A stretch of DNA of 64,000 nt, taken from the NCBI GenBank assembly GCA_964415865.1, contig CAYQBY010000003.1, positions 3,158 through 67,157 on the forward strand, in the 5' to 3' direction. The stretch comes from an uncultured Piscirickettsiaceae bacterium (GTDB lineage: Bacteria; Pseudomonadota; Gammaproteobacteria; GCF-002020875). Shown one piece after another: positions 34,813-59,236 of the stretch (the first letter of the stretch is position 1; each line of letters begins with the position of its first letter). Below the pieces are notes generated by a model. It saw nothing but the letters and a program-made list of their open reading frames with translations, had not been told where the DNA came from and did not search any database. A program made the position numbers and the translations under genes.

Positions 34813-35160
34813 ATGAAAAAAAGCTACCTTATACTCTGTTTTGCACTACTAACAGCACCAGTTCACGCTGTCAGTGACCATCAACTTGAGAAGGTAAAAC
34901 AGTTGGGGGAGCTCAACGGGATTGCTCTTAATTGTGGATATATTGATGAGACCCGCAGAATGAAACGAGCTATGGTATCAACTGTCCCCAAGATCAGGGT
35001 TATTGGGATAGCTTTTGATGAGGCAACTAACAGCTCCTTTCTCTCAACAATCAAATCGGGAAATTCATGTCCTACAGAGAAGTCACTTAGCCAACAGGTT
35101 GACAGCAGTATTGAGCAGTTGGAAACAGTATTTATGAATCATCAGGAGAAACTATTTTGA
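34813..35160 (+). CDS. Small secreted protein, unknown
   Basis: Signal peptide; 115 aa; ATGA-coupled to the downstream fusion gene. Confidence 0.4.
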   Translation: MKKSYLILCFALLTAPVHAVSDHQLEKVKQLGELNGIALNCGYIDETRRMKRAMVSTVPKIRVIGIAFDEATNSSFLSTIKSGNSCPTEKSLSQQVDSSIEQLETVFMNHQEKLF

Positions 35161-36587
35161 GGCTGCTCTCCCTATTTGTACTGCTCATCTTCTCCTCAAC
35201 CACATGGAGTGGCGAGCCTCTCAGGATTGTTACCACCATAAAACCAATTCATTCAATCCTCTCTGGTCTACTGGCAGGGACACGGCCTCCCGAACTACTT
35301 GTAGATAATCAGCAATCACCATATACAGTAACTCTCTCAAGATCCAAGCAACATACCATCAGGGATGCTGATATGGTCGTATGGGTGGGGCCAGAACTGG
35401 AGCAGTTTATGGTTAAGCAGATAGAACAGCTTGGCCCGAAGACAACCCTCTTTACCCTGCTTGATAATGAAGAGATCAAGGTTCTTCAGTCACGCTGGAA
35501 CAAGGGGAAACGTGATCCATTCTTATGGCTTGATAGCCGCAACATACTTATCCTTACTGATGAGCTTTTCAGAGCACTAATCAAGCTTGATCCAGAGCGC
35601 AGATCTCTATATGAAAATAACCGACGCAACCTGTTAAGCAGACTGGCAGAACTTGACCGCCGCCTGGAGTATGGATACAGAGGGCTGAAGAGCGGTATTG
35701 GCATGGCCTACTACGATACCTTGCAGTATTTTGAACAGGCATATGCACTAAAAATCAGGGGGGTGGTTGCAGAGTCACCAACAACACCAGTTAGTGGACT
35801 CTCTTTTCTACAGAGCAGGGCCAAACTCAAAAGTGGTGACTATAGCTGTCTGTTGACTGAACAGCAGATCGATCCTGATGACTTATCTCTGCTTACCAAT
35901 GAGATCACACTCAATATTGGTCTTTTGGACAGTTTTGGATCAAAAATAGATGCTGGAGAAGATCACTACTTCAAATTGATGGAGCAGAATACAGCTACTA
36001 TCAAACAGTGCTTAAAGTACGTGGATGATTCAATTGCAGAGGAGGTAGCAAAAGAGGTCATCCAAAACAGCACCAGTAATTCCACCACAACCAGCTATAT
36101 TGGTGGCAAGTTCATGTTACGTGATCATCACGGTAAACTATTTACCGACCAGGATATGCTGGGGGCATTCCATCTGGTCTACTTTGGATATACCTTCTGT
36201 CCTGATGTCTGCCCCACCTCACTACTCACCATCTCCTCAGCACTGAACAAACTTGGGGATGATGCCAAACAGATCCAGCCATACTTCATAACGGTTGACC
36301 CAGCCAGAGACAGACCAGAGGCGCTAAATACCTATGTTAACTATTTTCACCCGACCCTGATTGGACTAACTGGCACTCAGTCCATGATTGACCGGGTTGC
36401 CCGAATGTATCATGTGAAGTATGAGAAGGTTATTGACGAATCAAGAGACCCTGATCAATACATCATGGATCACTCATCAGGGGTTTTTGTGATGGCGCCC
36501 AGTGGAGAGTTCATAACTAAATTAGCTCACGGAATATCAGCTGATGATATGGCTGCCCGCATCAGAGATGTCCTGTCAAAACAATAG
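35157..36587 (+). CDS. Fusion protein: degenerate ZnuA/TroA-like periplasmic solute-binding domain plus a C-terminal SCO1/SenC copper-chaperone domain
   Basis: N-terminal TroA fold pattern with two canonical metal-binding His replaced (DPFLWLD for DPHxWLD; YDTLQYF for HDAFGYF); C-terminal CPDVCP CxxxC motif and conserved DHSSGVFV His. Confidence 0.65.
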   Translation: MRLLSLFVLLIFSSTTWSGEPLRIVTTIKPIHSILSGLLAGTRPPELLVDNQQSPYTVTLSRSKQHTIRDADMVVWVGPELEQFMVKQIEQLGPKTTLFTLLDNEEIKVLQSRWNKGKRDPFLWLDSRNILILTDELFRALIKLDPERRSLYENNRRNLLSRLAELDRRLEYGYRGLKSGIGMAYYDTLQYFEQAYALKIRGVVAESPTTPVSGLSFLQSRAKLKSGDYSCLLTEQQIDPDDLSLLTNEITLNIGLLDSFGSKIDAGEDHYFKLMEQNTATIKQCLKYVDDSIAEEVAKEVIQNSTSNSTTTSYIGGKFMLRDHHGKLFTDQDMLGAFHLVYFGYTFCPDVCPTSLLTISSALNKLGDDAKQIQPYFITVDPARDRPEALNTYVNYFHPTLIGLTGTQSMIDRVARMYHVKYEKVIDESRDPDQYIMDHSSGVFVMAPSGEFITKLAHGISADDMAARIRDVLSKQ

Positions 36588-37629: not shown

Positions 37630-38214
37630 CTACTTTACCCCGTTGGATATCAGGAACTGACCCAGCTCCTTATCAGTGCGTACGATATGGTCAAGTAGCC
37701 ACTCCTTCAGGAAGTGGTGAATCTCTGTGCTGAGATCCTCCTGGTCATCCAGATTACCTGTATGTTGACCACTAAAGGTCTCTACCTTCTCCACCATATC
37801 CCTATGCTGCTTCATGTGCGCATCTATATCTGGCCAGTTGTTATCTCTCATCAACCCCTCCTCGCGCTCGAAATGGTATTTGGTATATTCGATCAATTCA
37901 TCAATAACACCCTTCACATACCCCTCACCCATATTGTAATGGGAGGCACTAACAACCTGATTCAACAGTCCAACCAGCTTTTGGTGATCATGATCAATTA
38001 ACTCCACCCCAACCTCATACTGGCTATTCCAATCTATATACTCCTTACGCACACTGCGTTCATGAAGATATGGAATCAATGCCAGAATAACCAATATTAC
38101 CCACGGAACAGGATTGGCCAGACCAGCCTCAGATGTAACAAACCCCAGAAAGACGACCACTAACGCAACGATGATCAGTGAGAACAGTGCGAACATCGAG
38201 TAACTTTTTTTCAT
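37630..38214 (-). CDS. Membrane-anchored hemerythrin-like protein
   Basis: N-terminal TM helix; HHE cation-binding pattern (HDHQKLV...H...H..E...H...D). Confidence 0.7.
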   Translation of the reverse strand: MKKSYSMFALFSLIIVALVVVFLGFVTSEAGLANPVPWVILVILALIPYLHERSVRKEYIDWNSQYEVGVELIDHDHQKLVGLLNQVVSASHYNMGEGYVKGVIDELIEYTKYHFEREEGLMRDNNWPDIDAHMKQHRDMVEKVETFSGQHTGNLDDQEDLSTEIHHFLKEWLLDHIVRTDKELGQFLISNGVK

Positions 38215-38367: not shown

Positions 38368-39054
38368 ATGTCTATATCCACTGTTTTTGAGCGCGAGCTT
38401 CGCCGCTCCCCACTATTTTCCTCTCTATCCAAAGAGGCCATGGAAGATATTATAGACTCATCCGAACTTATCAGAAAAAAACCTAATGAGGTTCTGTTTC
38501 TGCAGGGAGATGCCGCTACCCATTTCTATGTTGTACGGACCGGCACCATTAGACTCTACCTGCTTACTCCAGATGGCGATGAAAAAACCGTAAATATCCT
38601 GCAGGCCGGCAACTCTTTTGCTGAGGCAATGGTGTTTATGGATGGCGGCAAATACCCAGTCAACAGCCAGTTTCTAGAGGACGGAGAGATATTCTCCTTC
38701 AACAGTAAGGTATACAAAAATATCATGCGCACAGATCCTGAAACAACCTTCTCGATCATGGCCGATCTTAGTATGCGACTACAGAACTACGTGCAGGAGA
38801 TCGAGCAGCTCTGCCTGCATAATGCCACCCACAGACTAATGAGTTACCTGCTTACCTTTATTCCTGCCGAGGACAATGAGGGAACCTTTCAATTACCAAC
38901 CCAAAAAAGCGTCATTGCGTCCAGACTCTCAATTCAGAGAGAGACCTTCTCGCGCATTCTTGGAAAACTGAAAAAGAGAAAGATGATTGATGTTAATGGC
39001 AACGAGGTTCATATCCTCGATGCTAAAATGATGCGCAGCGCTCTAGTTGATTGA
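38368..39054 (+). CDS. dnr: CRP/FNR-family transcriptional regulator, Dnr/NnrR-type
   Basis: cNMP-binding domain plus C-terminal HTH; no N-terminal Cys cluster. Confidence 0.75.
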   Translation: MSISTVFERELRRSPLFSSLSKEAMEDIIDSSELIRKKPNEVLFLQGDAATHFYVVRTGTIRLYLLTPDGDEKTVNILQAGNSFAEAMVFMDGGKYPVNSQFLEDGEIFSFNSKVYKNIMRTDPETTFSIMADLSMRLQNYVQEIEQLCLHNATHRLMSYLLTFIPAEDNEGTFQLPTQKSVIASRLSIQRETFSRILGKLKKRKMIDVNGNEVHILDAKMMRSALVD

Positions 39055-39402
39055 TACCACACTAATGTTCCCAACCATCTCAGGATGTGGGCCACATAGA
39101 TAACTATAGACCCCCTCTTGGGTGAAAGTATGTTCCCAGCTCTCCCCGGGAAAGAGATACTCTGACCCAACCAGATCACCTCCACCATAACCATTCAGTT
39201 TTACTGAATGATACTGCCTCTTCTCATGGTTGACCCAGCGTACTGTATCACCAGGATTGATCGTCACAGTTTGCGGTTGGTATCTGTAATCAATAATCTC
39301 AACCTCAACCACCCTTGGTTGAGGTATATCATTCGAACATCCTGACACAAAAAAAAGGCCTCCCAGCAGAAGCATGAGAGGCCTGTTATTAATCATTGTC
39401 AT
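39043..39402 (-). CDS. Blue-copper cupredoxin (amicyanin/plastocyanin-like) lipoprotein
   Basis: Lipobox FFVSGC; type-1 Cu ligands H..., CGPHPEM (C-x2-H-x2-M as in amicyanin). Confidence 0.7.
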   Translation of the reverse strand: MTMINNRPLMLLLGGLFFVSGCSNDIPQPRVVEVEIIDYRYQPQTVTINPGDTVRWVNHEKRQYHSVKLNGYGGGDLVGSEYLFPGESWEHTFTQEGVYSYLCGPHPEMVGNISVVSIN

Positions 39403-39403
39403 C

Positions 39404-41095
39404 TCACCATTTTACAGCATTGATCTCCGCTTTTGGATTGTCAAATCCGAGCTTGTAACCAAATGAGACATGGTGGAAGCGTCCATTTGTATAGTCATCG
39501 TGGATGGCGAAACCAAAGTTATAGACCTGGTCCAGTACCAGAGTTAGGTCATCTACATCACCAGAACTGAGCTTGCGCTTCATATCTACCACCCAGTTAC
39601 CCTGATCATCTCTCTTGCCCTCAAACTCAAGGTCACCACTATTACCACTCATATCACGATCAGCAAGTATCATTCCATCCTCAGCCTGCTTACTACCCGA
39701 CTTGTAGCGCACAAGATCCATGATCTTTTTCTGATCCAGTGCCGCCTTAATCTCTTCAGGCTTTCTCAGCTTGTCCCAGCCACCACGCTTCTTGCCACGA
39801 CGCCCCTTCACCTCAATCTTGGTACGTGACTCCTTGGTGTATTTGGTTACATCTGTACCCTCTGGCTGATGAGGCATACCGTTGGCATCATGGTGACAAG
39901 TTCCCCAACAACCTGCTCTATCCGCAAACTCAACCTCATCTGTAGCAAACATCATTGCCAGCTTGACAGGGTTCTCAGGATCCATCCGCTCAGAATCTGC
40001 AACTGGCTTATACTCTGTTGCTTCATTATGGTGGGCAACATCATGCCAGATAAACCGCATATATAGATTCTCACCATCATGTGCGGCCTTCACCATCACC
40101 GGGATTCCACCTCGCTTGCCAGGAATTGGAGTGGGCTCCATCGCCTTCTCATGCTTTCCACCAACAATACGGTCACCCATAACCTTGGCCTCTTTATCAT
40201 GACAGGTAAAGCATCTATCTCCACCCTTTTTAAAGGCATTTGCCCCACCATGATCTGTTCCATTAAGCACCCACTCTATGGATGTCTGTCCAGGATAGAT
40301 AACATAGATCTCTCTCCCTACAATAGATGACCAATCACCAGCCTTGGCTGATGCTGCCGCCTTGGCTGCTGCCTCAGCTGCCGCCTTCTCTGCTGCGGCT
40401 TTGGCTGCTGCCGCCGCCACTGGATCAAGATCAGCAAGCTGGAACAGTTTTGCCCCAGGTTTCGCCAGTGACTCGTCAGGGGCCTCCATAGCCTCCTTCT
40501 CCTCATCACTCAACAGCTTATGAACCCCTTTGTGCGCAACACCCTTATGACAGTCAATACAGGTCTGTCCCGATCTAAGAGCATTGGTATGTTGATTCAT
40601 AGCACGAGGTTTCTGCATGTCTCCATTCATAGCCTCAAAATTGTGGCAGTTCCGACACTCTCTGGAATCGGTACTCTTCATCGAACGCCATACATTTTTT
40701 GCCAACTGCAGACGTTTCGCATCAAACTTTTCAGGGGTATCAATAGTCCCCAGCACTTTATGCAACACCTCGTTACTGGCCTGAATCTTTCTGGCTACCT
40801 TATGTACCCATGGATCAGGTACATGACAATCCGAACAGGTTGCCCGTACTCCAGTACGATTCGCATAGTGGATAGTCTTCTGGTACTCCTTGTAAACATT
40901 GTCCTCCATCTCATGACATGAGATACAGAACTCAAGAGTATTGGTAACCTCCATTGCCGTATTGAATCCACCCCAGAAGATAATTCCAAACAGGGCAAAA
41001 ACCAGGCCTCCTCCAAGTGTCGTATTGAGGATCAAACGACGTGAGAACATCAACTTCATTCTCTCTTTGAAACTTGGTCTCTCAGGAATTGGCAT
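39404..41095 (-). CDS. nirT: NapC/NirT-family membrane tetraheme cytochrome fused to a ~370-aa C-terminal periplasmic domain with additional heme motifs
   Basis: N-terminal TM anchor plus four CxxCH (CISCH, CSDCH, CRNCH, CIDCH); Ala/Lys-rich linker; then CFTCH and CWGTCH; start chosen at MPIPERPS so that the nirS1 terminator is not included. Confidence 0.7.
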   Translation of the reverse strand: MPIPERPSFKERMKLMFSRRLILNTTLGGGLVFALFGIIFWGGFNTAMEVTNTLEFCISCHEMEDNVYKEYQKTIHYANRTGVRATCSDCHVPDPWVHKVARKIQASNEVLHKVLGTIDTPEKFDAKRLQLAKNVWRSMKSTDSRECRNCHNFEAMNGDMQKPRAMNQHTNALRSGQTCIDCHKGVAHKGVHKLLSDEEKEAMEAPDESLAKPGAKLFQLADLDPVAAAAAKAAAEKAAAEAAAKAAASAKAGDWSSIVGREIYVIYPGQTSIEWVLNGTDHGGANAFKKGGDRCFTCHDKEAKVMGDRIVGGKHEKAMEPTPIPGKRGGIPVMVKAAHDGENLYMRFIWHDVAHHNEATEYKPVADSERMDPENPVKLAMMFATDEVEFADRAGCWGTCHHDANGMPHQPEGTDVTKYTKESRTKIEVKGRRGKKRGGWDKLRKPEEIKAALDQKKIMDLVRYKSGSKQAEDGMILADRDMSGNSGDLEFEGKRDDQGNWVVDMKRKLSSGDVDDLTLVLDQVYNFGFAIHDDYTNGRFHHVSFGYKLGFDNPKAEINAVKW

Positions 41096-41127
41096 GGATA
41101 GCTCCCCAGGCAATACAAATAAGTTAT

Positions 41128-41162
41128 ATAAAAAAGCCGGCACCTGATATGCAGGTGCCGGC
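41128..41162 (-). terminator. Rho-independent terminator downstream of nirS copy 1
   Basis: GCCGGCACCTG-atatg-CAGGTGCCGGC stem followed by a T-run on the minus strand. Confidence 0.75.
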
Positions 41163-41173
41163 CACTACTCTAC

Positions 41174-42808
41174 TTAGGTTACGTGGTTAGTTCTACTGTA
41201 AACGTTGAACTTACCAGTTGGTGTGGTCAGTCCCTTGATACGAGCCTTCTCTTCAAGAGTGTCCGCATCATAGACTACGATCTCACCAGTTGGGTTACCG
41301 TTATCAGTACGGTTCCAGACAGAGACCCAGGCCTCACTTCCATCCTTGTTAAACTCAATATGGAGTGCCGCCTTACCCTTCTCTTCAGTTACACGGATGG
41401 TCTTAACGATCTCACCGGTCTCCTTGGAGATAACCTGTACAGACTGCTGGATCTCAGGCTCAGGATTCTTGACCTGATCTGCCCATACGTACTTGGAGTT
41501 TGGATGAGTACGGATAAACGCACCTGCTCCATCAGTCTCGATCTCACGTACGATCTTCCACGCCTTGCTTGGTGTACCAGCTGGATCATTACCCCATACG
41601 GTTACCATGCCTGTTCCCAGATGGACTGTAGCACCTACAGGACCATGCTTTGGATCATCCCAGTTTGCACCAGGACCAGGGTGTGGCTTCTTGCCAGTGG
41701 TATCAATCATCGCCTCAAGCTTGCGGGTCTTGGTATCAACTACAACCATCTTGTTGGATGCATTTGCCGCAATCTGGAAGTAACGTCCGGTTGGATCAAA
41801 GAATCCATCATGAAGATATTTAGCTGAATCAATCTTGGTGATTCGAAGATTCTCGATATCAGTGTAGTCAACCTGCCACATCTGTCCCAGCTCCTTGACC
41901 GCAACCAGGAAGGTTGGCTCGTTTGGAGTGGTGTAGACCGCAGCTACGCGTGACTCATTTACATATTCACCATCAACATTTACCCCGCGAGTGGATACTA
42001 CCTTCAGCGGCTCCATGGTCTTGGCATCAGCAATTACGAAGTGTGGTGGCCAGTAGCCTCCACCAATTACATATTTACCGTCACCAGAGATTGCAACATC
42101 ACGTGCATCGTATGCAATCTGGGTCTTGGCAACCAGCATGCTTCCTGGCTGTTGCCATAGATCGATCTTACTCATTACACCATCACGACCCATTGTGTAC
42201 CAGAAACGTCCGGCAACACCATTCTCTGGGTGCTCAGTCTCATGATGCTCAGTGGCCTTGATTACGTGTACTGCATAACCAGTATCAATATGGTCGATAA
42301 TCTCTTTGGTATCACCATCGATTACTGCTGCCTTACCGGCATCACGCTCGATTACTACGAAGAAGTTCTCCCAATTGCGGCCATGCAGTGGCTTGGTTGG
42401 ATAGTCCTTAGGATCGACAAATACCTCTGTGCGCTCCTTCATCATAGCCAGTGACATCTCTGGTGGAACTGGTGGCTCCAACTGGATGTAGGTGGCCATC
42501 ATTGAGATCTCTTCTTTACTGAAAATATCATCAAAGTTGTTCATTCCACCGTCTGTTCCGTAAGTCAGGATCTTCTCTAGACGCTCCTGACCTAGTTCAC
42601 GAGTATTTTTTGGCTCCAGGCTCTTGCCTGTCGCTCCCTTTCTCAGTACACCGTGACAACCTGCACAGCGTTGGAAATAGAGCTTCTTGGAGTGCTCAAA
42701 ATCCGCCTCTGATAGTGATGGCTCAGCACTTACTGTAGTACCGACCCCGCCCATTGCAACACCCACTGCAAGACTTAACGCAGTCAATGATAATTTCTTC
42801 ATATTCAT
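41174..42808 (-). CDS. nirS: Cytochrome cd1 nitrite reductase NirS, copy 1 (Sec signal peptide, soluble periplasmic)
   Basis: Signal peptide MKKLSLTALSLAVGV...; c-heme CAGCH; d1 eight-bladed propeller sequence; start taken at MNMKK. Confidence 0.92.
   Translation of the reverse strand: MNMKKLSLTALSLAVGVAMGGVGTTVSAEPSLSEADFEHSKKLYFQRCAGCHGVLRKGATGKSLEPKNTRELGQERLEKILTYGTDGGMNNFDDIFSKEEISMMATYIQLEPPVPPEMSLAMMKERTEVFVDPKDYPTKPLHGRNWENFFVVIERDAGKAAVIDGDTKEIIDHIDTGYAVHVIKATEHHETEHPENGVAGRFWYTMGRDGVMSKIDLWQQPGSMLVAKTQIAYDARDVAISGDGKYVIGGGYWPPHFVIADAKTMEPLKVVSTRGVNVDGEYVNESRVAAVYTTPNEPTFLVAVKELGQMWQVDYTDIENLRITKIDSAKYLHDGFFDPTGRYFQIAANASNKMVVVDTKTRKLEAMIDTTGKKPHPGPGANWDDPKHGPVGATVHLGTGMVTVWGNDPAGTPSKAWKIVREIETDGAGAFIRTHPNSKYVWADQVKNPEPEIQQSVQVISKETGEIVKTIRVTEEKGKAALHIEFNKDGSEAWVSVWNRTDNGNPTGEIVVYDADTLEEKARIKGLTTPTGKFNVYSRTNHVT
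41178..42721. repeat. Direct repeat unit A (1544 bp, 100% identical to 42890..44433), mature nirS coding region
   Basis: Identical spurious ORFs in the six-frame track at a constant +1712 offset; base-by-base boundaries checked. Confidence 0.95.
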
Positions 42809-42843
42809 AGTTCTCCTAAACAAAACAAAAAACCTCCTCTTGT

Positions 42844-42876
42844 AAAAAACCCCTTTAGCCAATCAGGTTAAAGGGG
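42844..42876 (-). terminator. Rho-independent terminator downstream of nirS copy 2
   Basis: CCCCTTTA-loop-TAAAGGGG stem followed by TTTTTT on the minus strand. Confidence 0.7.
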
Positions 42877-42885
42877 TCTCTTTTA

Positions 42886-44643
42886 TCAAGTTACGTGGTT
42901 AGTTCTACTGTAAACGTTGAACTTACCAGTTGGTGTGGTCAGTCCCTTGATACGAGCCTTCTCTTCAAGAGTGTCCGCATCATAGACTACGATCTCACCA
43001 GTTGGGTTACCGTTATCAGTACGGTTCCAGACAGAGACCCAGGCCTCACTTCCATCCTTGTTAAACTCAATATGGAGTGCCGCCTTACCCTTCTCTTCAG
43101 TTACACGGATGGTCTTAACGATCTCACCGGTCTCCTTGGAGATAACCTGTACAGACTGCTGGATCTCAGGCTCAGGATTCTTGACCTGATCTGCCCATAC
43201 GTACTTGGAGTTTGGATGAGTACGGATAAACGCACCTGCTCCATCAGTCTCGATCTCACGTACGATCTTCCACGCCTTGCTTGGTGTACCAGCTGGATCA
43301 TTACCCCATACGGTTACCATGCCTGTTCCCAGATGGACTGTAGCACCTACAGGACCATGCTTTGGATCATCCCAGTTTGCACCAGGACCAGGGTGTGGCT
43401 TCTTGCCAGTGGTATCAATCATCGCCTCAAGCTTGCGGGTCTTGGTATCAACTACAACCATCTTGTTGGATGCATTTGCCGCAATCTGGAAGTAACGTCC
43501 GGTTGGATCAAAGAATCCATCATGAAGATATTTAGCTGAATCAATCTTGGTGATTCGAAGATTCTCGATATCAGTGTAGTCAACCTGCCACATCTGTCCC
43601 AGCTCCTTGACCGCAACCAGGAAGGTTGGCTCGTTTGGAGTGGTGTAGACCGCAGCTACGCGTGACTCATTTACATATTCACCATCAACATTTACCCCGC
43701 GAGTGGATACTACCTTCAGCGGCTCCATGGTCTTGGCATCAGCAATTACGAAGTGTGGTGGCCAGTAGCCTCCACCAATTACATATTTACCGTCACCAGA
43801 GATTGCAACATCACGTGCATCGTATGCAATCTGGGTCTTGGCAACCAGCATGCTTCCTGGCTGTTGCCATAGATCGATCTTACTCATTACACCATCACGA
43901 CCCATTGTGTACCAGAAACGTCCGGCAACACCATTCTCTGGGTGCTCAGTCTCATGATGCTCAGTGGCCTTGATTACGTGTACTGCATAACCAGTATCAA
44001 TATGGTCGATAATCTCTTTGGTATCACCATCGATTACTGCTGCCTTACCGGCATCACGCTCGATTACTACGAAGAAGTTCTCCCAATTGCGGCCATGCAG
44101 TGGCTTGGTTGGATAGTCCTTAGGATCGACAAATACCTCTGTGCGCTCCTTCATCATAGCCAGTGACATCTCTGGTGGAACTGGTGGCTCCAACTGGATG
44201 TAGGTGGCCATCATTGAGATCTCTTCTTTACTGAAAATATCATCAAAGTTGTTCATTCCACCGTCTGTTCCGTAAGTCAGGATCTTCTCTAGACGCTCCT
44301 GACCTAGTTCACGAGTATTTTTTGGCTCCAGGCTCTTGCCTGTCGCTCCCTTTCTCAGTACACCGTGACAACCTGCACAGCGTTGGAAATAGAGCTTCTT
44401 GGAGTGCTCAAAATCCGCCTCTGATAGTGATGGTCCGGATGCAGCCACCTTGGCTGGTGCTGCTGGGGCTGGAGCAGGGGCTGGTGCCGCTGCTGGAGCT
44501 GGTGCTGGTGCTGGTGCTGGTGCTGCAGTTTTTGATGCACCTGAATCACCAGAGTCACCACACCCTGATAATCCCAGAGTCATGACTATTGCCAGACTCA
44601 GGGTTGCACCCTTCTTGAAACTCCTCTTCTTACCATCGATCAT
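42886..44643 (-). CDS. nirS: Cytochrome cd1 nitrite reductase NirS, copy 2, lipoprotein form with a Pro/Ala-rich linker
   Basis: Lipobox LGLSGC followed by (PA)n linker; then identical to copy 1 from SLSEADFEH to the C-terminus. Confidence 0.9.
   Translation of the reverse strand: MIDGKKRSFKKGATLSLAIVMTLGLSGCGDSGDSGASKTAAPAPAPAPAPAAAPAPAPAPAAPAKVAASGPSLSEADFEHSKKLYFQRCAGCHGVLRKGATGKSLEPKNTRELGQERLEKILTYGTDGGMNNFDDIFSKEEISMMATYIQLEPPVPPEMSLAMMKERTEVFVDPKDYPTKPLHGRNWENFFVVIERDAGKAAVIDGDTKEIIDHIDTGYAVHVIKATEHHETEHPENGVAGRFWYTMGRDGVMSKIDLWQQPGSMLVAKTQIAYDARDVAISGDGKYVIGGGYWPPHFVIADAKTMEPLKVVSTRGVNVDGEYVNESRVAAVYTTPNEPTFLVAVKELGQMWQVDYTDIENLRITKIDSAKYLHDGFFDPTGRYFQIAANASNKMVVVDTKTRKLEAMIDTTGKKPHPGPGANWDDPKHGPVGATVHLGTGMVTVWGNDPAGTPSKAWKIVREIETDGAGAFIRTHPNSKYVWADQVKNPEPEIQQSVQVISKETGEIVKTIRVTEEKGKAALHIEFNKDGSEAWVSVWNRTDNGNPTGEIVVYDADTLEEKARIKGLTTPTGKFNVYSRTNHVT
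42890..44433. repeat. Direct repeat unit B (1544 bp, identical to 41178..42721)
   Basis: As above. Confidence 0.95.
44458..44530. repeat. Simple-sequence repeat (GCTGGT/GCTGGG)n encoding the Pro-Ala linker of lipoprotein NirS
   Basis: gctggggctggagcaggggctggtgccgctgctggagctggtgctggtgctggtgctggtgctg. Confidence 0.85.
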
Positions 44644-57167: not shown

Positions 57168-57671
57168 TTATTCAAAGATAAATTCTCCATGTTTTGCATC
57201 AAAATCCACCACTATGATCTCTGCTGGGGCCATATCAACATCTTCCTCAGCAATATAATCAAATTCATCACTATCTACGCTATCACGCATTTTCACCCCA
57301 AGCCTGTGTTTGCCTGATGGCACTGTTATCTTCTGATAAGTATATCCTGCAGCATCATTGTGCAGCCCTGAAGGTATGATGGTCTCAGAGTGTACTACCT
57401 CTCCATCAAGCTCCAACTCAAGAAAAATGGGGGAACGCTCTCTTGGACATACAACAGGCATCCGCATATTTGGTGGTAGCTTTGCTAACTGTTCCGGAGT
57501 CTGTTTCACACACTCCCCAGCTGGTTCACTGGTATGTGCCAGACTAATCTTGATCAATGCTGTATCCGCCCCCATGTGATTATATGATGGTGATGTAGAG
57601 AGGTAACCAACTACCGCCATGAACAGTCCATAAAGCACAACCTGACCGATTATCTGCATAACCTTGCTCAC
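57168..57671 (-). CDS. Membrane-anchored periplasmic protein, unknown
   Basis: N-terminal TM; 167 aa; ATGA-type overlap with the upstream gene. Confidence 0.4.
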   Translation of the reverse strand: MSKVMQIIGQVVLYGLFMAVVGYLSTSPSYNHMGADTALIKISLAHTSEPAGECVKQTPEQLAKLPPNMRMPVVCPRERSPIFLELELDGEVVHSETIIPSGLHNDAAGYTYQKITVPSGKHRLGVKMRDSVDSDEFDYIAEEDVDMAPAEIIVVDFDAKHGEFIFE

Positions 57672-59236
57672 TGTTTTACCTCCTCTTCACTACCCTCTCC
57701 ACTATCCTGCTCACCGCTATAACCATGCAGGTAGTCACGGAACTCTTTGATCTGTGAATCAAGTTGTTTTTGGTCGGGACTCTCGGCACGGAAAATACGG
57801 ATACGGTTACGATCAACTCGTGAGCGCAGTGCAGGCTTTCTGTCCTTATGAATCCTCTCATCAAGCCAGTGATTTCCAAGACGATAGTGGCAATTATTCT
57901 CCAGACAACCGGTAATAAATACACCGTCTGCATTACCACGTCTGAATGCATAATCAATGAATGAGGCTGGCAACATTCCTGTGCACGGAAGGGTAACTAC
58001 TGCTGTATCACCACCCTTGTATCTATCCAATTCAGCTGCGTGATCACAACCAAAGATGATAATACGGGTCTCACCATCCAATGCTCCAAGTTTGGTGTTG
58101 CACTCCTCACGCAACATATTGACTGACTCATGAGGCATATCAATACCGGTCACCAGTGGCTCCATCTTTCTGAATGGAGTTGATGATGGGCAGGAACCAG
58201 CACAGATTCCACAACTGGCACAGTAGCTATCATGTACTACTGCAACCTCATCATATGGGAGATCATCCGTTCTTGGCTCCATAGTGATTGCGCTATATGG
58301 GCAATCATCAACGCACTGACCACAACCGTTACACTCCTCCGGGAAGATCACGGCAACCGGCGGCTGCTTCTTCTTGGGGAACCATGGAAGAATAATCAAC
58401 AGGGCACTAACTGCCCAGACCAGAGACCATACCGCCCACATTGGCCAGCTATCAGCTAGTGGATAGATATTAAGATAGAACCAGTCAAGATTTATATCGG
58501 TTGGTACCGTATCAAGATTTGCCTGTTCGTGGCTCACCGCCGGCTTGTATAGTGAGAGTGCAACAAGGGCAACAAGCGTTCCAATAGCCAGACCACGTGG
58601 CGGATTAATAACCGAACGACTTATCCGTAGCAGGTGTATCCAGATCCCGAAGAGCAGGAATATTGGCAGACCGATAACGTGGATGAACGCAATCAGGGTA
58701 AAGAAGCGGTCATTCATATCATCACTGGTCAGGAAGTTCCTGGCCATCGGCTCAGTAAAGATTGGCAGCCAGTCCATCATCTCTGATGATGCGATTGCAA
58801 CATACTGAGCCATGGTATCCCATACCATCCAGTACCCAGAGATACCAAGCAGTGCTGTCATCCACAACAGTGGTACCCCGGAAAACCAGGAGAACCAGCG
58901 AAAGCTGCGGAACCTATCCAACACAAACTCACGGCTCAGGTGAAGGATGATGGTAATGATTGCGGCATCAGATGCATATCGATGGAGGCTGCGCATAATC
59001 CCGGCAGACCACCACAGCTCATTACTCATGTATTCCAGTGATGACCAAGCCCCAAATATACTGGACTCGTAAAGTACAAAAACATATATCCCACTTACCA
59101 GAACGATCCAGAATAGATATACGGTCAGGGCTCCAAGGTGGTAGATGGGGTTCAGCTCTTTGGTGAAAAATATATTGAACCATCCCTCCATCGTAGAGAC
59201 TACGGACTCTCTAACTTTTTGTATGTGATTATTCAT
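57668..59236 (-). CDS. Fusion protein: N-terminal diheme cytochrome b (bc-type Cytb_N-like) plus 2x[4Fe-4S] ferredoxin plus MvhD/FlpD-like Cys-rich domain
   Basis: TM helices with paired His (HLGALT, SLHRY...ILHLS, FIHVIG...IHLL); CNGCGQCVDDCP and CASCGICAGSCP; C-terminal FGCDH...LPCTG...TGCLENNCHY. Confidence 0.65.
   Translation of the reverse strand: MNNHIQKVRESVVSTMEGWFNIFFTKELNPIYHLGALTVYLFWIVLVSGIYVFVLYESSIFGAWSSLEYMSNELWWSAGIMRSLHRYASDAAIITIILHLSREFVLDRFRSFRWFSWFSGVPLLWMTALLGISGYWMVWDTMAQYVAIASSEMMDWLPIFTEPMARNFLTSDDMNDRFFTLIAFIHVIGLPIFLLFGIWIHLLRISRSVINPPRGLAIGTLVALVALSLYKPAVSHEQANLDTVPTDINLDWFYLNIYPLADSWPMWAVWSLVWAVSALLIILPWFPKKKQPPVAVIFPEECNGCGQCVDDCPYSAITMEPRTDDLPYDEVAVVHDSYCASCGICAGSCPSSTPFRKMEPLVTGIDMPHESVNMLREECNTKLGALDGETRIIIFGCDHAAELDRYKGGDTAVVTLPCTGMLPASFIDYAFRRGNADGVFITGCLENNCHYRLGNHWLDERIHKDRKPALRSRVDRNRIRIFRAESPDQKQLDSQIKEFRDYLHGYSGEQDSGEGSEEEVKQ

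Follow-up and report, generated by a model that had tools for sequence, protein, structure and literature searches.

A nirT-nirB gene fusion directly downstream of nirS, a probable bc1-independent route from quinol to nitrite reduction

Fusions of a NapC/NirT module with an additional haem domain have long been known from TorC/DorC. That NapC-type and NirB-type proteins act in series, on the way from quinol to periplasmic reductases, has been shown in other organisms. In Azospira suillum PS, napC and pcrQ are interchangeable, as are napO and pcrO, within each pair, and losing both members of either pair stops anaerobic growth on nitrate and perchlorate (PMC5845722). Hence, the genetics of this unfused pair support a relay from quinol via a NapC-type and a NirB-type protein to a periplasmic reductase (PMC5845722). 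PcrO and the NirB protein of P. stutzeri nirSTBM have in common a signature of CXXCH and an atypical CWXXCH, reported in 2013 (PMC3884062), and the contribution of NirB itself in P. stutzeri has been described as unresolved (PMC13086519). The latter work also mentions a fused NirTB and cites such a fusion for Halomonas sp. 2A (PMC13086519).

We describe here a fusion of this kind on the minus strand of a 64,000-nucleotide window (the whole stretch of DNA that was analysed), in which narGH, nirF, nirDLGH, nirJ and nirN are also encoded. The features of the locus are as follows.

39043..39402, minus strand: type-1 cupredoxin, 119 aa, with lipobox FVSGC and copper loop CGPHPEM (Pfam Copper-bind, 1.1e-10)
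39404..41095, minus strand: nirT-nirB fusion ORF, complete, 563 aa, with ATG at 41095 and stop codon at 39404-39406
39407..40336, minus strand: NirB-type (NirB/PcrO/NapO) dihaem cytochrome module, residues 254-563, an EB_dh/DOMON-like beta-sandwich with predicted haems
39893..39910, minus strand: CWGTCH, residues 396-401, an atypical CX3CH motif
40199..40213, minus strand: CFTCH, residues 295-299, a canonical motif for attaching haem c, in the NirB module
40337..40522, minus strand: inter-domain linker, residues 192-253, outside all Pfam matches
40337-40420, minus strand: Ala/Lys-rich low-complexity stretch, part of the linker, residues 226-253, VAAAAAKAAAEKAAAEAAAKAAASAKAG
40523..41005, minus strand: NapC/NirT tetrahaem module, residues 31-191 (Pfam PF03264), with CISCH(EM), CSDCH, CRNCH and CIDCH
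40547-40561, minus strand: CIDCH, residue 179, in the NapC/NirT module
40643-40657, minus strand: CRNCH, residue 147, in the NapC/NirT module
40823-40837, minus strand: CSDCH, residue 87, in the NapC/NirT module
40913-40927, minus strand: CISCH, residue 57, in the NapC/NirT module
40964..41038, minus strand: membrane anchor at the N-terminus, a hydrophobic stretch recognised in the sequence itself, residues ~20-44, RLILNTTLGGGLVFALFGIIFWGGF, presumed topology
41135..41163, minus strand: terminator-like hairpin with T-run, 12-bp stem with 9 G-C pairs, located past nirS copy B and ahead of the fusion ORF
41174..42862, minus strand: nirS copy B, cytochrome cd1 nitrite reductase with Sec-type signal, directly upstream of the fusion (Pfam Cytochrom_D1, 9.9e-118)
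42886..44643, minus strand: nirS copy A, cytochrome cd1 nitrite reductase with lipobox signal and Pro/Ala linker (Pfam, 1.1e-117)

The fusion ORF is free of internal stops. With a GTG at 41143 as start it would extend over 39404..41143 (579 aa), but the ATG start, with GGGGAG 8 nt 5' of it, is more likely. The architecture given in a preliminary description of this DNA, namely a membrane-anchored NapC/NirT module with four CxxCH motifs that continues in frame through an Ala/Lys-rich linker into a beta-rich domain with CFTCH and CWGTCH, located between nirS and a cupredoxin gene, was recovered in every part. Pfam PF03264 (Cytochrom_NNT) matches residues 31-191 with 242.7 bits (cut-off 24.1; E 2.5e-72). 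Judged from the sequence, the protein has the four CXXCH motifs and the one N-terminal membrane anchor that define the NapC/NirT family, and the anchor lies where it is typically found in this family. The curated NCBIfam models NapC/NirT, NapC and TorC all score under their respective cut-offs (TIGR02161, the napC_nirT subfamily, 262.3 bits, below the curated 310.6), and thus no equivalog assignment is made. Such scores are expected for a fused, divergent member, and the N-terminal module is best placed in the broad Pfam NapC/NirT family, under the curated subfamily threshold. A PDB sequence search with the N-terminal 200 aa returned nothing at E < 0.001.

The preliminary description had cautiously likened the C-terminal domain to EB_dh and proposed an HMM search of the region. 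This search matches Pfam EB_dh on residues 315-544 with 100.3 bits (cut-off 33.3; E 2.3e-28). The AF2 model of the module (pLDDT 80.9, pTM 0.85) retrieves EbdC (2IVF_C, 1.8e-8) and NxrC (7B04_C, 3.1e-8) in Foldseek, and a PDB single-sequence search with the domain gives a marginal match to NxrC and nothing else. All 129 fused relatives retrieved have both extra Cys motifs in each of their EB_dh modules, 93-103 residues apart, and the motifs are also present in full-length standalone homologues of ~300-345 aa that cover the region; the Cys and His residues of the motifs are invariant in a 121-sequence alignment. Thus, these motifs are not there by chance, and two c-type haems, attached via CFTCH and CWGTCH, are predicted for the module. 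Its identity is 32-44% to 120 aligned standalone periplasmic homologues and 31-50% to full-length standalone representatives. One standalone homologue found by profile search is named 'cytochrome c-552 precursor', and the second gene past nirS in P. stutzeri RCH2 is annotated 'Ethylbenzene dehydrogenase'. The module combines the EB_dh fold, the CXXCH and CWXXCH pair and the link to a NapC/NirT gene past nirS, and by these sequence features we assign it to the NirB/PcrO/NapO family of dihaem cytochromes; the tie to P. stutzeri NirB (cytochrome c-552) would follow from published statements and annotations. Consequently, the ORF is to be read as nirT fused to nirB.

We consider it likely that this translational fusion provides a membrane-anchored six-haem, bc1-independent route from quinol to the cupredoxin and/or NirS. 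The NirT module would act as a membrane-anchored tetrahaem quinol dehydrogenase, tied by the flexible Ala/Lys-rich linker to a periplasmic NirB-type module, an EbdC/DOMON-like beta-sandwich predicted to carry two c-type haems on CFTCH and CWGTCH. Quinol oxidation would take place at haem 1 of the NirT module, beside the membrane, and electrons would then pass over the four NirT haems to the two NirB haems and from there to the downstream lipoprotein cupredoxin, directly to NirS, or to both. NirS, the cytochrome cd1, would then reduce nitrite to NO, and the whole route would proceed without the bc1 complex.

The distribution of the fusion in public genomes is wide. A database search returned 2,897 matches, and NapC/NirT and EB_dh are both present in all 120 of the matches listed. 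When genome contigs were scanned with the C-terminal domain, only fused forms were seen among the matches listed; unfused gene pairs of NapC/NirT and an EB_dh cytochrome also exist. A synteny search for fusions beside nirS, likewise suggested in the preliminary description, was carried out on 25 nir loci of gamma- and alphaproteobacteria (Azospirillum brasilense Sp7 and Ruegeria among them), and in each locus a NirT and NirB fusion in one stop-free frame directly follows nirS. One NirB module is present in 14 of these loci and two in 11, and nearly all of the best 120 of the 2,897 matches have two in tandem. The two-module relatives have 8 haem motifs and 900-960 aa; the protein of the window is the one-module form with 6 motifs. 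A cupredoxin gene directly follows the fusion in 16 of the 25 loci. The remaining nine are without a cupredoxin match directly downstream (some are contig ends, and two have a hemerythrin gene instead) and hence the cupredoxin is not an obligatory partner. Plasmids of Azospirillum brasilense Sp7 and Ruegeria also carry the module of nirS, fusion and cupredoxin, as does a tubeworm symbiont, in which nirC/F/D/L/G/H/J/N come next. Public annotations of the fusion read 'NapC/NirT family cytochrome c', 'cytochrome C552' or 'ethylbenzene dehydrogenase-related protein'. The NirT-NirB fusion is therefore real, under selection and common in public genomes, and it is not a new type of protein. The statement in the preliminary description that no fused NirT with extra redox centres of its own had been described has to be withdrawn, given the fused NirTB already reported (PMC13086519), the NirB signature published in 2013 (PMC3884062) and the abundance of such fusions in databases.

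The place of the gene between nirS and a cupredoxin gene indicates a role in electron supply for nitrite reduction. The cupredoxin gene begins one base past the fusion ORF, and its product is probably the electron acceptor or shuttle of the fusion protein. On the other side, the two nirS copies have identical DNA across ~1.54 kb, and copy B is separated from the fusion by the hairpin at 41135..41163 (-29.4 kcal/mol, z = -2.6). With such a strong terminator-like hairpin between them, co-expression of nirS and the fusion is not guaranteed, and the hairpin could possibly be an attenuator that sets the expression ratio of nirS to nirTB. The lipobox of one nirS copy, with its Pro/Ala linker, and that of the cupredoxin also allow a more far-reaching and rather doubtful idea, in which an all-tethered chain of membrane-anchored NirTB, lipoprotein cupredoxin and lipoprotein NirS would form a bc1-independent, membrane-bound quinol:nitrite oxidoreductase assembly, whose docking and exit site would be the unusual CX3CH-bound haem of the NirB-type module, perhaps together with a b-type haem as the third. 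If true, this would establish a new class of electron-transfer domains, DOMON-like and haem-binding, since NirB-type domains are without a solved structure.

The hairpin also implies expression below that of nirS, which would suit a protein that is not a bulk donor to cytochrome cd1 but its reductive activator or regulatory partner, rendering NirS competent or gating it by nitrate or redox state; in line with this, the presence of nirTB has been tied to a phenotype of nitrite accumulation, where the reduction of nitrite is stopped by nitrate (PMC13086519). We regard such a purely regulatory role as unlikely. A wire of six to eight haems with a dedicated cupredoxin appears elaborate for activation alone, the strict conservation in the 25 loci suits a core respiratory function, and activation and electron donation can coexist.

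The direction of electron flow can be questioned from the side of the host organisms. The closest named source of the protein is the sulfur oxidiser Ca. Thiopontia autotrophica, many carriers of the fusion are thiotrophic symbionts or Sedimenticola, and unfused pairs of NapC/NirT and NirB-type genes adjoin MtrA/MtrB-like porin-cytochrome genes. In this sulfur-oxidising chemolithoautotroph, the same fusion might thus run in reverse, from periplasmic carriers, reduced for example by sulfur oxidation, to the quinone pool, as a quinone reductase for reverse electron flow. This seems quite improbable, because the fusion lies inside the nir cluster, directly past nirS, in every nir locus, which points to nitrite reduction, and the genetics of PcrQ/PcrO and NapC/NapO suit a flow from quinol to reductase. 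Furthermore, the study on ImoA reports evidence for quinol oxidation and not for quinone reduction. Quinol oxidation and electron transfer towards NirS therefore remain our preferred reading.

EbdC ligates its haem by Met and Lys, and an invariant Met and an invariant Lys are likewise present in the NirB-type family. In the protein of the window, D403, M407 and K418 are invariant after CWGTCH, and the invariant candidate axial ligands, H282 (near-invariant), M407, K418, H532 and H541 besides the proximal H299 and H401, exceed the need of two bis-ligated haems. Two c haems plus an EbdC-type haem b were raised as a possibility in 2013 by Melnyk (PMC3884062), and each NirB-type module might accordingly hold three haems, or else bind NO, peroxide, nitrite or a similar small ligand, and function in catalysis or sensing. 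We find this very improbable. PDB profile searches with the C-terminal domain align only the beta-sandwich cores of NxrC and EbdC, outside the regions that hold the haem-b ligands, and a search for a catalytic motif in the NirB-type module found none. PcrO and NapO have been treated as dihaem electron carriers, and the genetics suit a simple relay.

An artefact, in which a sequencing or assembly frameshift joined separate nirT and nirB genes as they occur in P. stutzeri and in non-nir loci (a concern also voiced in the preliminary description), has a negligible chance, because 44 public contigs from several sources record a protein identical to the product of the fusion ORF, the 25 independent loci from different taxa all have a single stop-free frame, and the same annotation is found on complete plasmid sequences of cultured strains.

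The quinol-oxidising six-haem route favoured here would mean that the gene marks a probable bc1-free wiring of nitrite reduction to the quinol pool in a sulfur-oxidising bacterium of dysoxic marine water. Such wiring bears on how much energy denitrification yields and possibly on nitrite accumulation, the latter because nirTB has been proposed to be linked with nitrite-accumulating phenotypes in Stutzerimonas. The fusion is also natural evidence for NirT and NirB acting as one unit. Since the NirB/PcrO/NapO domain is widespread and without a solved structure or verified haem count, a naturally fused version with six motifs could be a handy target for biochemistry.

Among known systems, the EbdC/NxrC/NarC-type gamma subunits of the type II DMSO-reductase family share the beta-sandwich fold, but they are subunits of Mo enzymes with one non-covalent haem b, whereas two covalent-haem motifs are found here. 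Membership among the EbdC/NarC/SerC/ClrC-type gamma subunits was rejected (TIGR03477, 17.4 against a cut-off of 169.85), and the neighbours are nirS and a cupredoxin gene, with no Mo-enzyme alpha or beta genes; the C-terminal module thus has the gamma-subunit fold without being a member of that family. The pentahaem cytochromes TorC/DorC resemble the fusion in having a NapC/NirT tetrahaem quinol dehydrogenase with a C-terminal haem domain that serves a periplasmic reductase. In TorC this domain is small and monohaem, in contrast to the EB_dh beta-sandwich seen here, and TorC/DorC membership was likewise rejected (TIGR02162, 240.8 against 478.2, aligned to residues 35-256 only, with an EB_dh fold C-terminally). 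PcrQ/PcrO and NapC/NapO of Azospira suillum PS come closer, with a NapC/NirT quinol dehydrogenase and an EbdC-like dihaem cytochrome with CXXCH and CWXXCH that, according to the genetics, form a serial relay leading from the quinol pool to a periplasmic reductase. They differ in being separate proteins that serve perchlorate reductase or periplasmic nitrate reductase, not a cd1 nitrite reductase. NirT and NirB of P. stutzeri (Stutzerimonas) nirSTBM share both protein families and the gene order past nirS; from literature and annotation, this pair would consist of a tetrahaem NapC/NirT protein and the dihaem 'cytochrome c-552', with EB_dh fold, CXXCH and CWXXCH. There, two proteins are made and the next gene encodes cytochrome c551 (NirM), whereas here one polypeptide with an Ala/Lys-rich linker is followed by a cupredoxin. 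Many fusions in the databases differ from that of the window in having two tandem NirB modules instead of one. The fused NirTB of Halomonas sp. 2A and the database entries, from Sedimenticola, tubeworm and clam symbionts, Methylophaga, Thiothrix, Azospirillum brasilense Sp7 and Ruegeria (NirB part 45-71% identical), represent the same fusion, directly past nirS and with the same pattern of six Cys motifs.

The open reading frame joining a NapC/NirT cytochrome to a second redox module can be read in the window from two starts:

39404..41143, minus strand: fusion ORF from a GTG start, 579 aa
39404..41095, minus strand: fusion ORF from an ATG start, 563 aa

The ATG at 41095 is the likely start, because a GGGGAG Shine-Dalgarno sequence precedes it by 8 nt and public gene calls yield the same 563 aa product. 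Four CXXCH motifs occur in the translated protein (CISCH at residue 57, CSDCH at 87, CRNCH at 147 and CIDCH at 179), followed by an Ala/Lys-rich stretch at residues 226-253 (VAAAAAKAAAEKAAAEAAAKAAASAKAG) and, beyond it, CFTCH at 295 and CWGTCH at 396. Pfam places Cytochrom_NNT (NapC/NirT) at residues 31-191 (E 2.5e-72) and EB_dh at residues 315-544 (E 2.3e-28). The ORF has the coordinates given in the preliminary description, runs on the minus strand and contains all six Cys motifs, and the proposed succession of NapC/NirT module, Ala/Lys linker and beta-rich domain is borne out by translation, Pfam and an AlphaFold2 model. Four sources record an identical protein, on 44 public contigs in all, and a member of its cluster at at least 90% identity is the "NapC/NirT family cytochrome c" of Candidatus Thiopontia autotrophica. 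A frameshift or assembly artefact is ruled out by these 44 contigs and by the 25 related nir-context loci, in all of which NirT and NirB are encoded in a single frame free of stop codons. Hence, translation, Pfam domains and public contigs together confirm the fusion.

With 120 homologues as input, AlphaFold2 modelled residues 246-563 confidently (mean pLDDT 80.9, pTM 0.85) as a mostly beta-stranded domain with one helix beginning at the CXXCH motif. Foldseek searches against the PDB matched it to the ethylbenzene dehydrogenase gamma subunit (2IVF_C, 1.8e-8), nitrite oxidoreductase subunit C (7B04_C, 3.1e-8), CBM9 modules and, more weakly, dopamine beta-hydroxylase (E 9.2e-3), presumably through the DOMON domain of the latter. 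The tentative EB_dh assignment therefore holds at the level of the fold (Pfam, 2IVF_C and 7B04_C), but not as an EbdC-type gamma subunit, which is rejected with a TIGR03477 score of 17 bits against a cut-off of 170. No Mo-enzyme subunit genes adjoin the fusion ORF in the window. With EbdC and NxrC the domain has the beta-sandwich core in common, and alignment of the family profile to both is confined to this core. The two extra haem-type motifs, CFTCH and the atypical CWGTCH, are indeed present, and all 129 fused relatives keep both in each of their EB_dh modules, with a spacing of 93-103 residues. Both also occur in full-length standalone periplasmic proteins (~300-345 aa) spanning the region, standalone homologues having been searched exhaustively (464 representatives at E <= 1e-3). 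In a 121-sequence alignment C295, C298, H299, C396, C400 and H401 are invariant (full-length numbering), as are D403, M407, K418, H532, R539 and H541. Judged from sequence, the two Cys motifs mark a distinct EB_dh subfamily. Sequence, profile and Foldseek searches with the C-terminal domain returned no NirB-type structure among their PDB matches. Around CFTCH (A2 positions 65-95; window 40180-40260) the family profile weakly matched 1E8E, cytochrome c'' of Methylophilus methylotrophus (E 0.02), probably a mere local likeness of motifs.

Three observations lead us to read the ORF as nirT fused to nirB. One source names a standalone homologue of the C-terminal module "cytochrome c-552 precursor", and cytochrome c-552 is what Swiss-Prot calls NirB. 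P. stutzeri RCH2 encodes NirS as Psest_0815, and the second gene after it, Psest_0817, bears the annotation "Ethylbenzene dehydrogenase". Melnyk et al. 2013 (PMC3884062) describe Dsui_0143 of Azospira suillum PS, an EbdC homologue whose gene adjoins Dsui_0144, a NapC/NirT tetrahaem gene, and report that a signature of one CXXCH and one atypical CWXXCH motif is common to PcrO and P. stutzeri NirB. By this comparison the C-terminal module is a NirB/PcrO/NapO-type dihaem cytochrome, its haems being predicted.

The architecture is widespread. The full-length query gave 2,897 matches at E <= 1e-5; both Pfam domains occur in 120/120 of the best 120, most of which have 900-960 aa and two EB_dh modules. 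The 25 nir-context loci comprise 22 from a scan with one genome per species, two annotated plasmid loci and one symbiont locus. The proposed position between nirS and a cupredoxin gene is found in the window, and elsewhere nirS lies immediately upstream of the fusion in all 25 loci and a cupredoxin directly downstream in 16. Carriers include Methylophaga, Piscirickettsiaceae, Thiothrix, Sedimenticola, Motiliproteus, tubeworm and bivalve symbionts, and Alphaproteobacteria such as Azospirillum brasilense Sp7 and Ruegeria, in which the RefSeq order is nirS, "NapC/NirT family cytochrome c", "plastocyanin/azurin family copper-binding protein". In the Escarpia symbiont the nirS-fusion module is followed by nirC-like, nirF, nirD/L/G/H, nirJ and nirN genes; the window also encodes cobA, nirF, nirD/L/G/H-type genes, nirJ, nirN and narGH. 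Domain identity, motif conservation and synteny are established for the fusion. One NirB module (six motifs) is present in 14 loci and two modules (eight motifs) in 11. In two-module relatives (database proteins P0002-P0120, e.g. P0007 and P0011) the modules within one protein are 71-97% identical, while same-position modules of different proteins average only ~63%, a pattern which indicates concerted evolution or repeated internal duplication. The one module of the window fusion stands equally far from both, and the two forms could be interconverted by unequal recombination between modules.

Several neighbours bear on the fusion:

41135-41163, minus strand: strong intrinsic-terminator-like hairpin between nirS-B (the second nirS copy) and the nirTB ORF
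39043-39402, minus strand: cupredoxin gene downstream of the fusion, with lipobox FVSGC and type-1 Cu loop CGPHPEM
37630-38214, minus strand: hemerythrin-domain protein gene near nirS

The tandem nirS copies (41174-44643, minus strand) are 100% identical in DNA over ~1.54 kb and differ only at the 5' end, in N-terminal targeting; so exact a match suggests that the duplication is very recent, that gene conversion has occurred or that the assembly is at fault. Copy B starts with a standard Sec signal peptide. In copy A (42886-44643) a lipobox (LGLSGC) precedes a long linker rich in Pro and Ala, an arrangement suggestive of a lipoprotein NirS tethered to the membrane. Given the lipoboxes of this copy and of the cupredoxin, quinol dehydrogenase, cupredoxin and one NirS would all be membrane-tethered in this organism; among the related loci examined, a cupredoxin lipobox recurs only in two from alphaproteobacterial MAGs (L003, L014). 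The hairpin has a 12-bp stem with 9 G-C pairs and a T-run (-29.4 kcal/mol, z = -2.6); by reducing read-through it could keep expression of nirTB and the cupredoxin gene below that of nirS. A hemerythrin gene lies close to nirS in most of the 25 loci (33-63% identity), directly downstream of the fusion instead of the cupredoxin in L009 and L020; its product may serve in O2/NO sensing or protection. Elsewhere in the window, an ORF at 35157-36587 (plus strand) combines a ZnuA-like periplasmic metal-binding part (residues 24-285) with an SCO1/SenC copper chaperone (residues 316-452), an unusual fusion adjoining the denitrification genes. A 522-aa ORF at 57668-59236 (minus strand) joins a cytochrome b N-terminal part, 4Fe-4S ferredoxin motifs and an FlpD-like domain of the methyl-viologen-reducing hydrogenase delta type.

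The most likely function, by analogy, is a chain from quinol through NirT and NirB haems to cupredoxin/NirS. The NirT module would oxidise quinol at its haem 1, close to the membrane; the motif of this haem is a CXXCHxM variant (CISCHEM), presumably the NrfH-type quinol-site signature. Electrons would pass the four NirT haems and then the two NirB haems, and leave for the cupredoxin and/or directly for NirS, bypassing the bc1 complex; we infer that both extra motifs bind haem, in which direction electrons flow and what accepts them. Serial action of the two cytochrome types has been shown in another organism. In Azospira the quinol dehydrogenases NapC and PcrQ are interchangeable, as are the EbdC-like dihaem cytochromes NapO and PcrO, and a double deletion within either pair leaves the bacterium unable to grow anaerobically on nitrate and perchlorate (PMC5845722). 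These genetics support, by analogy, a relay from quinol via NapC-type and NirB-type cytochromes to a periplasmic reductase. It is less likely that the DOMON-like module holds an additional haem b or binds a ligand; an extra haem b was raised by Melnyk et al. 2013 (PMC3884062), and the invariant potential axial ligands in the 121-sequence alignment exceed the need of two haems. Reverse operation as a quinone reductase in a lithotroph, or a role as reductive activator or regulatory partner of cd1, is likewise less likely than the chain from quinol to cupredoxin/NirS.

Outside nir clusters, NapC/NirT and NirB-type genes are found unfused and adjacent (L025, L026, L027). In L025 (5345-10388) a NapC/NirT protein (202 aa) and a NirB-type EB_dh cytochrome (321 aa) are encoded directly upstream of an MtrA-like decahaem cytochrome and an MtrB/PioB porin, so this pair appears to belong to an extracellular-electron-transfer-type cluster rather than a nir cluster. 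In L028 (5338-12265) an unfused NapC/NirT and EB_dh cytochrome pair precedes genes for a histidine kinase, a sigma-54 response regulator and another EB_dh-domain protein, of larger size (547 aa).

In TorC and DorC, too, a NapC/NirT module carries an added haem domain, and the window fusion resembles them in this design principle; the TorC model aligns to residues 35-256 only, with a score below cut-off. Both modules belong to known families, and their pairing has precedents in P. stutzeri, Azospira and others. The claim that a NirT with built-in extra redox centres had never been described is contradicted by a passage of a paper that mentions a fused NirTB in Halomonas sp. 2A (PMC13086519). 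Thus, NirT-NirB fusions abound in databases and have been mentioned in the literature, and this one is nothing new in kind.
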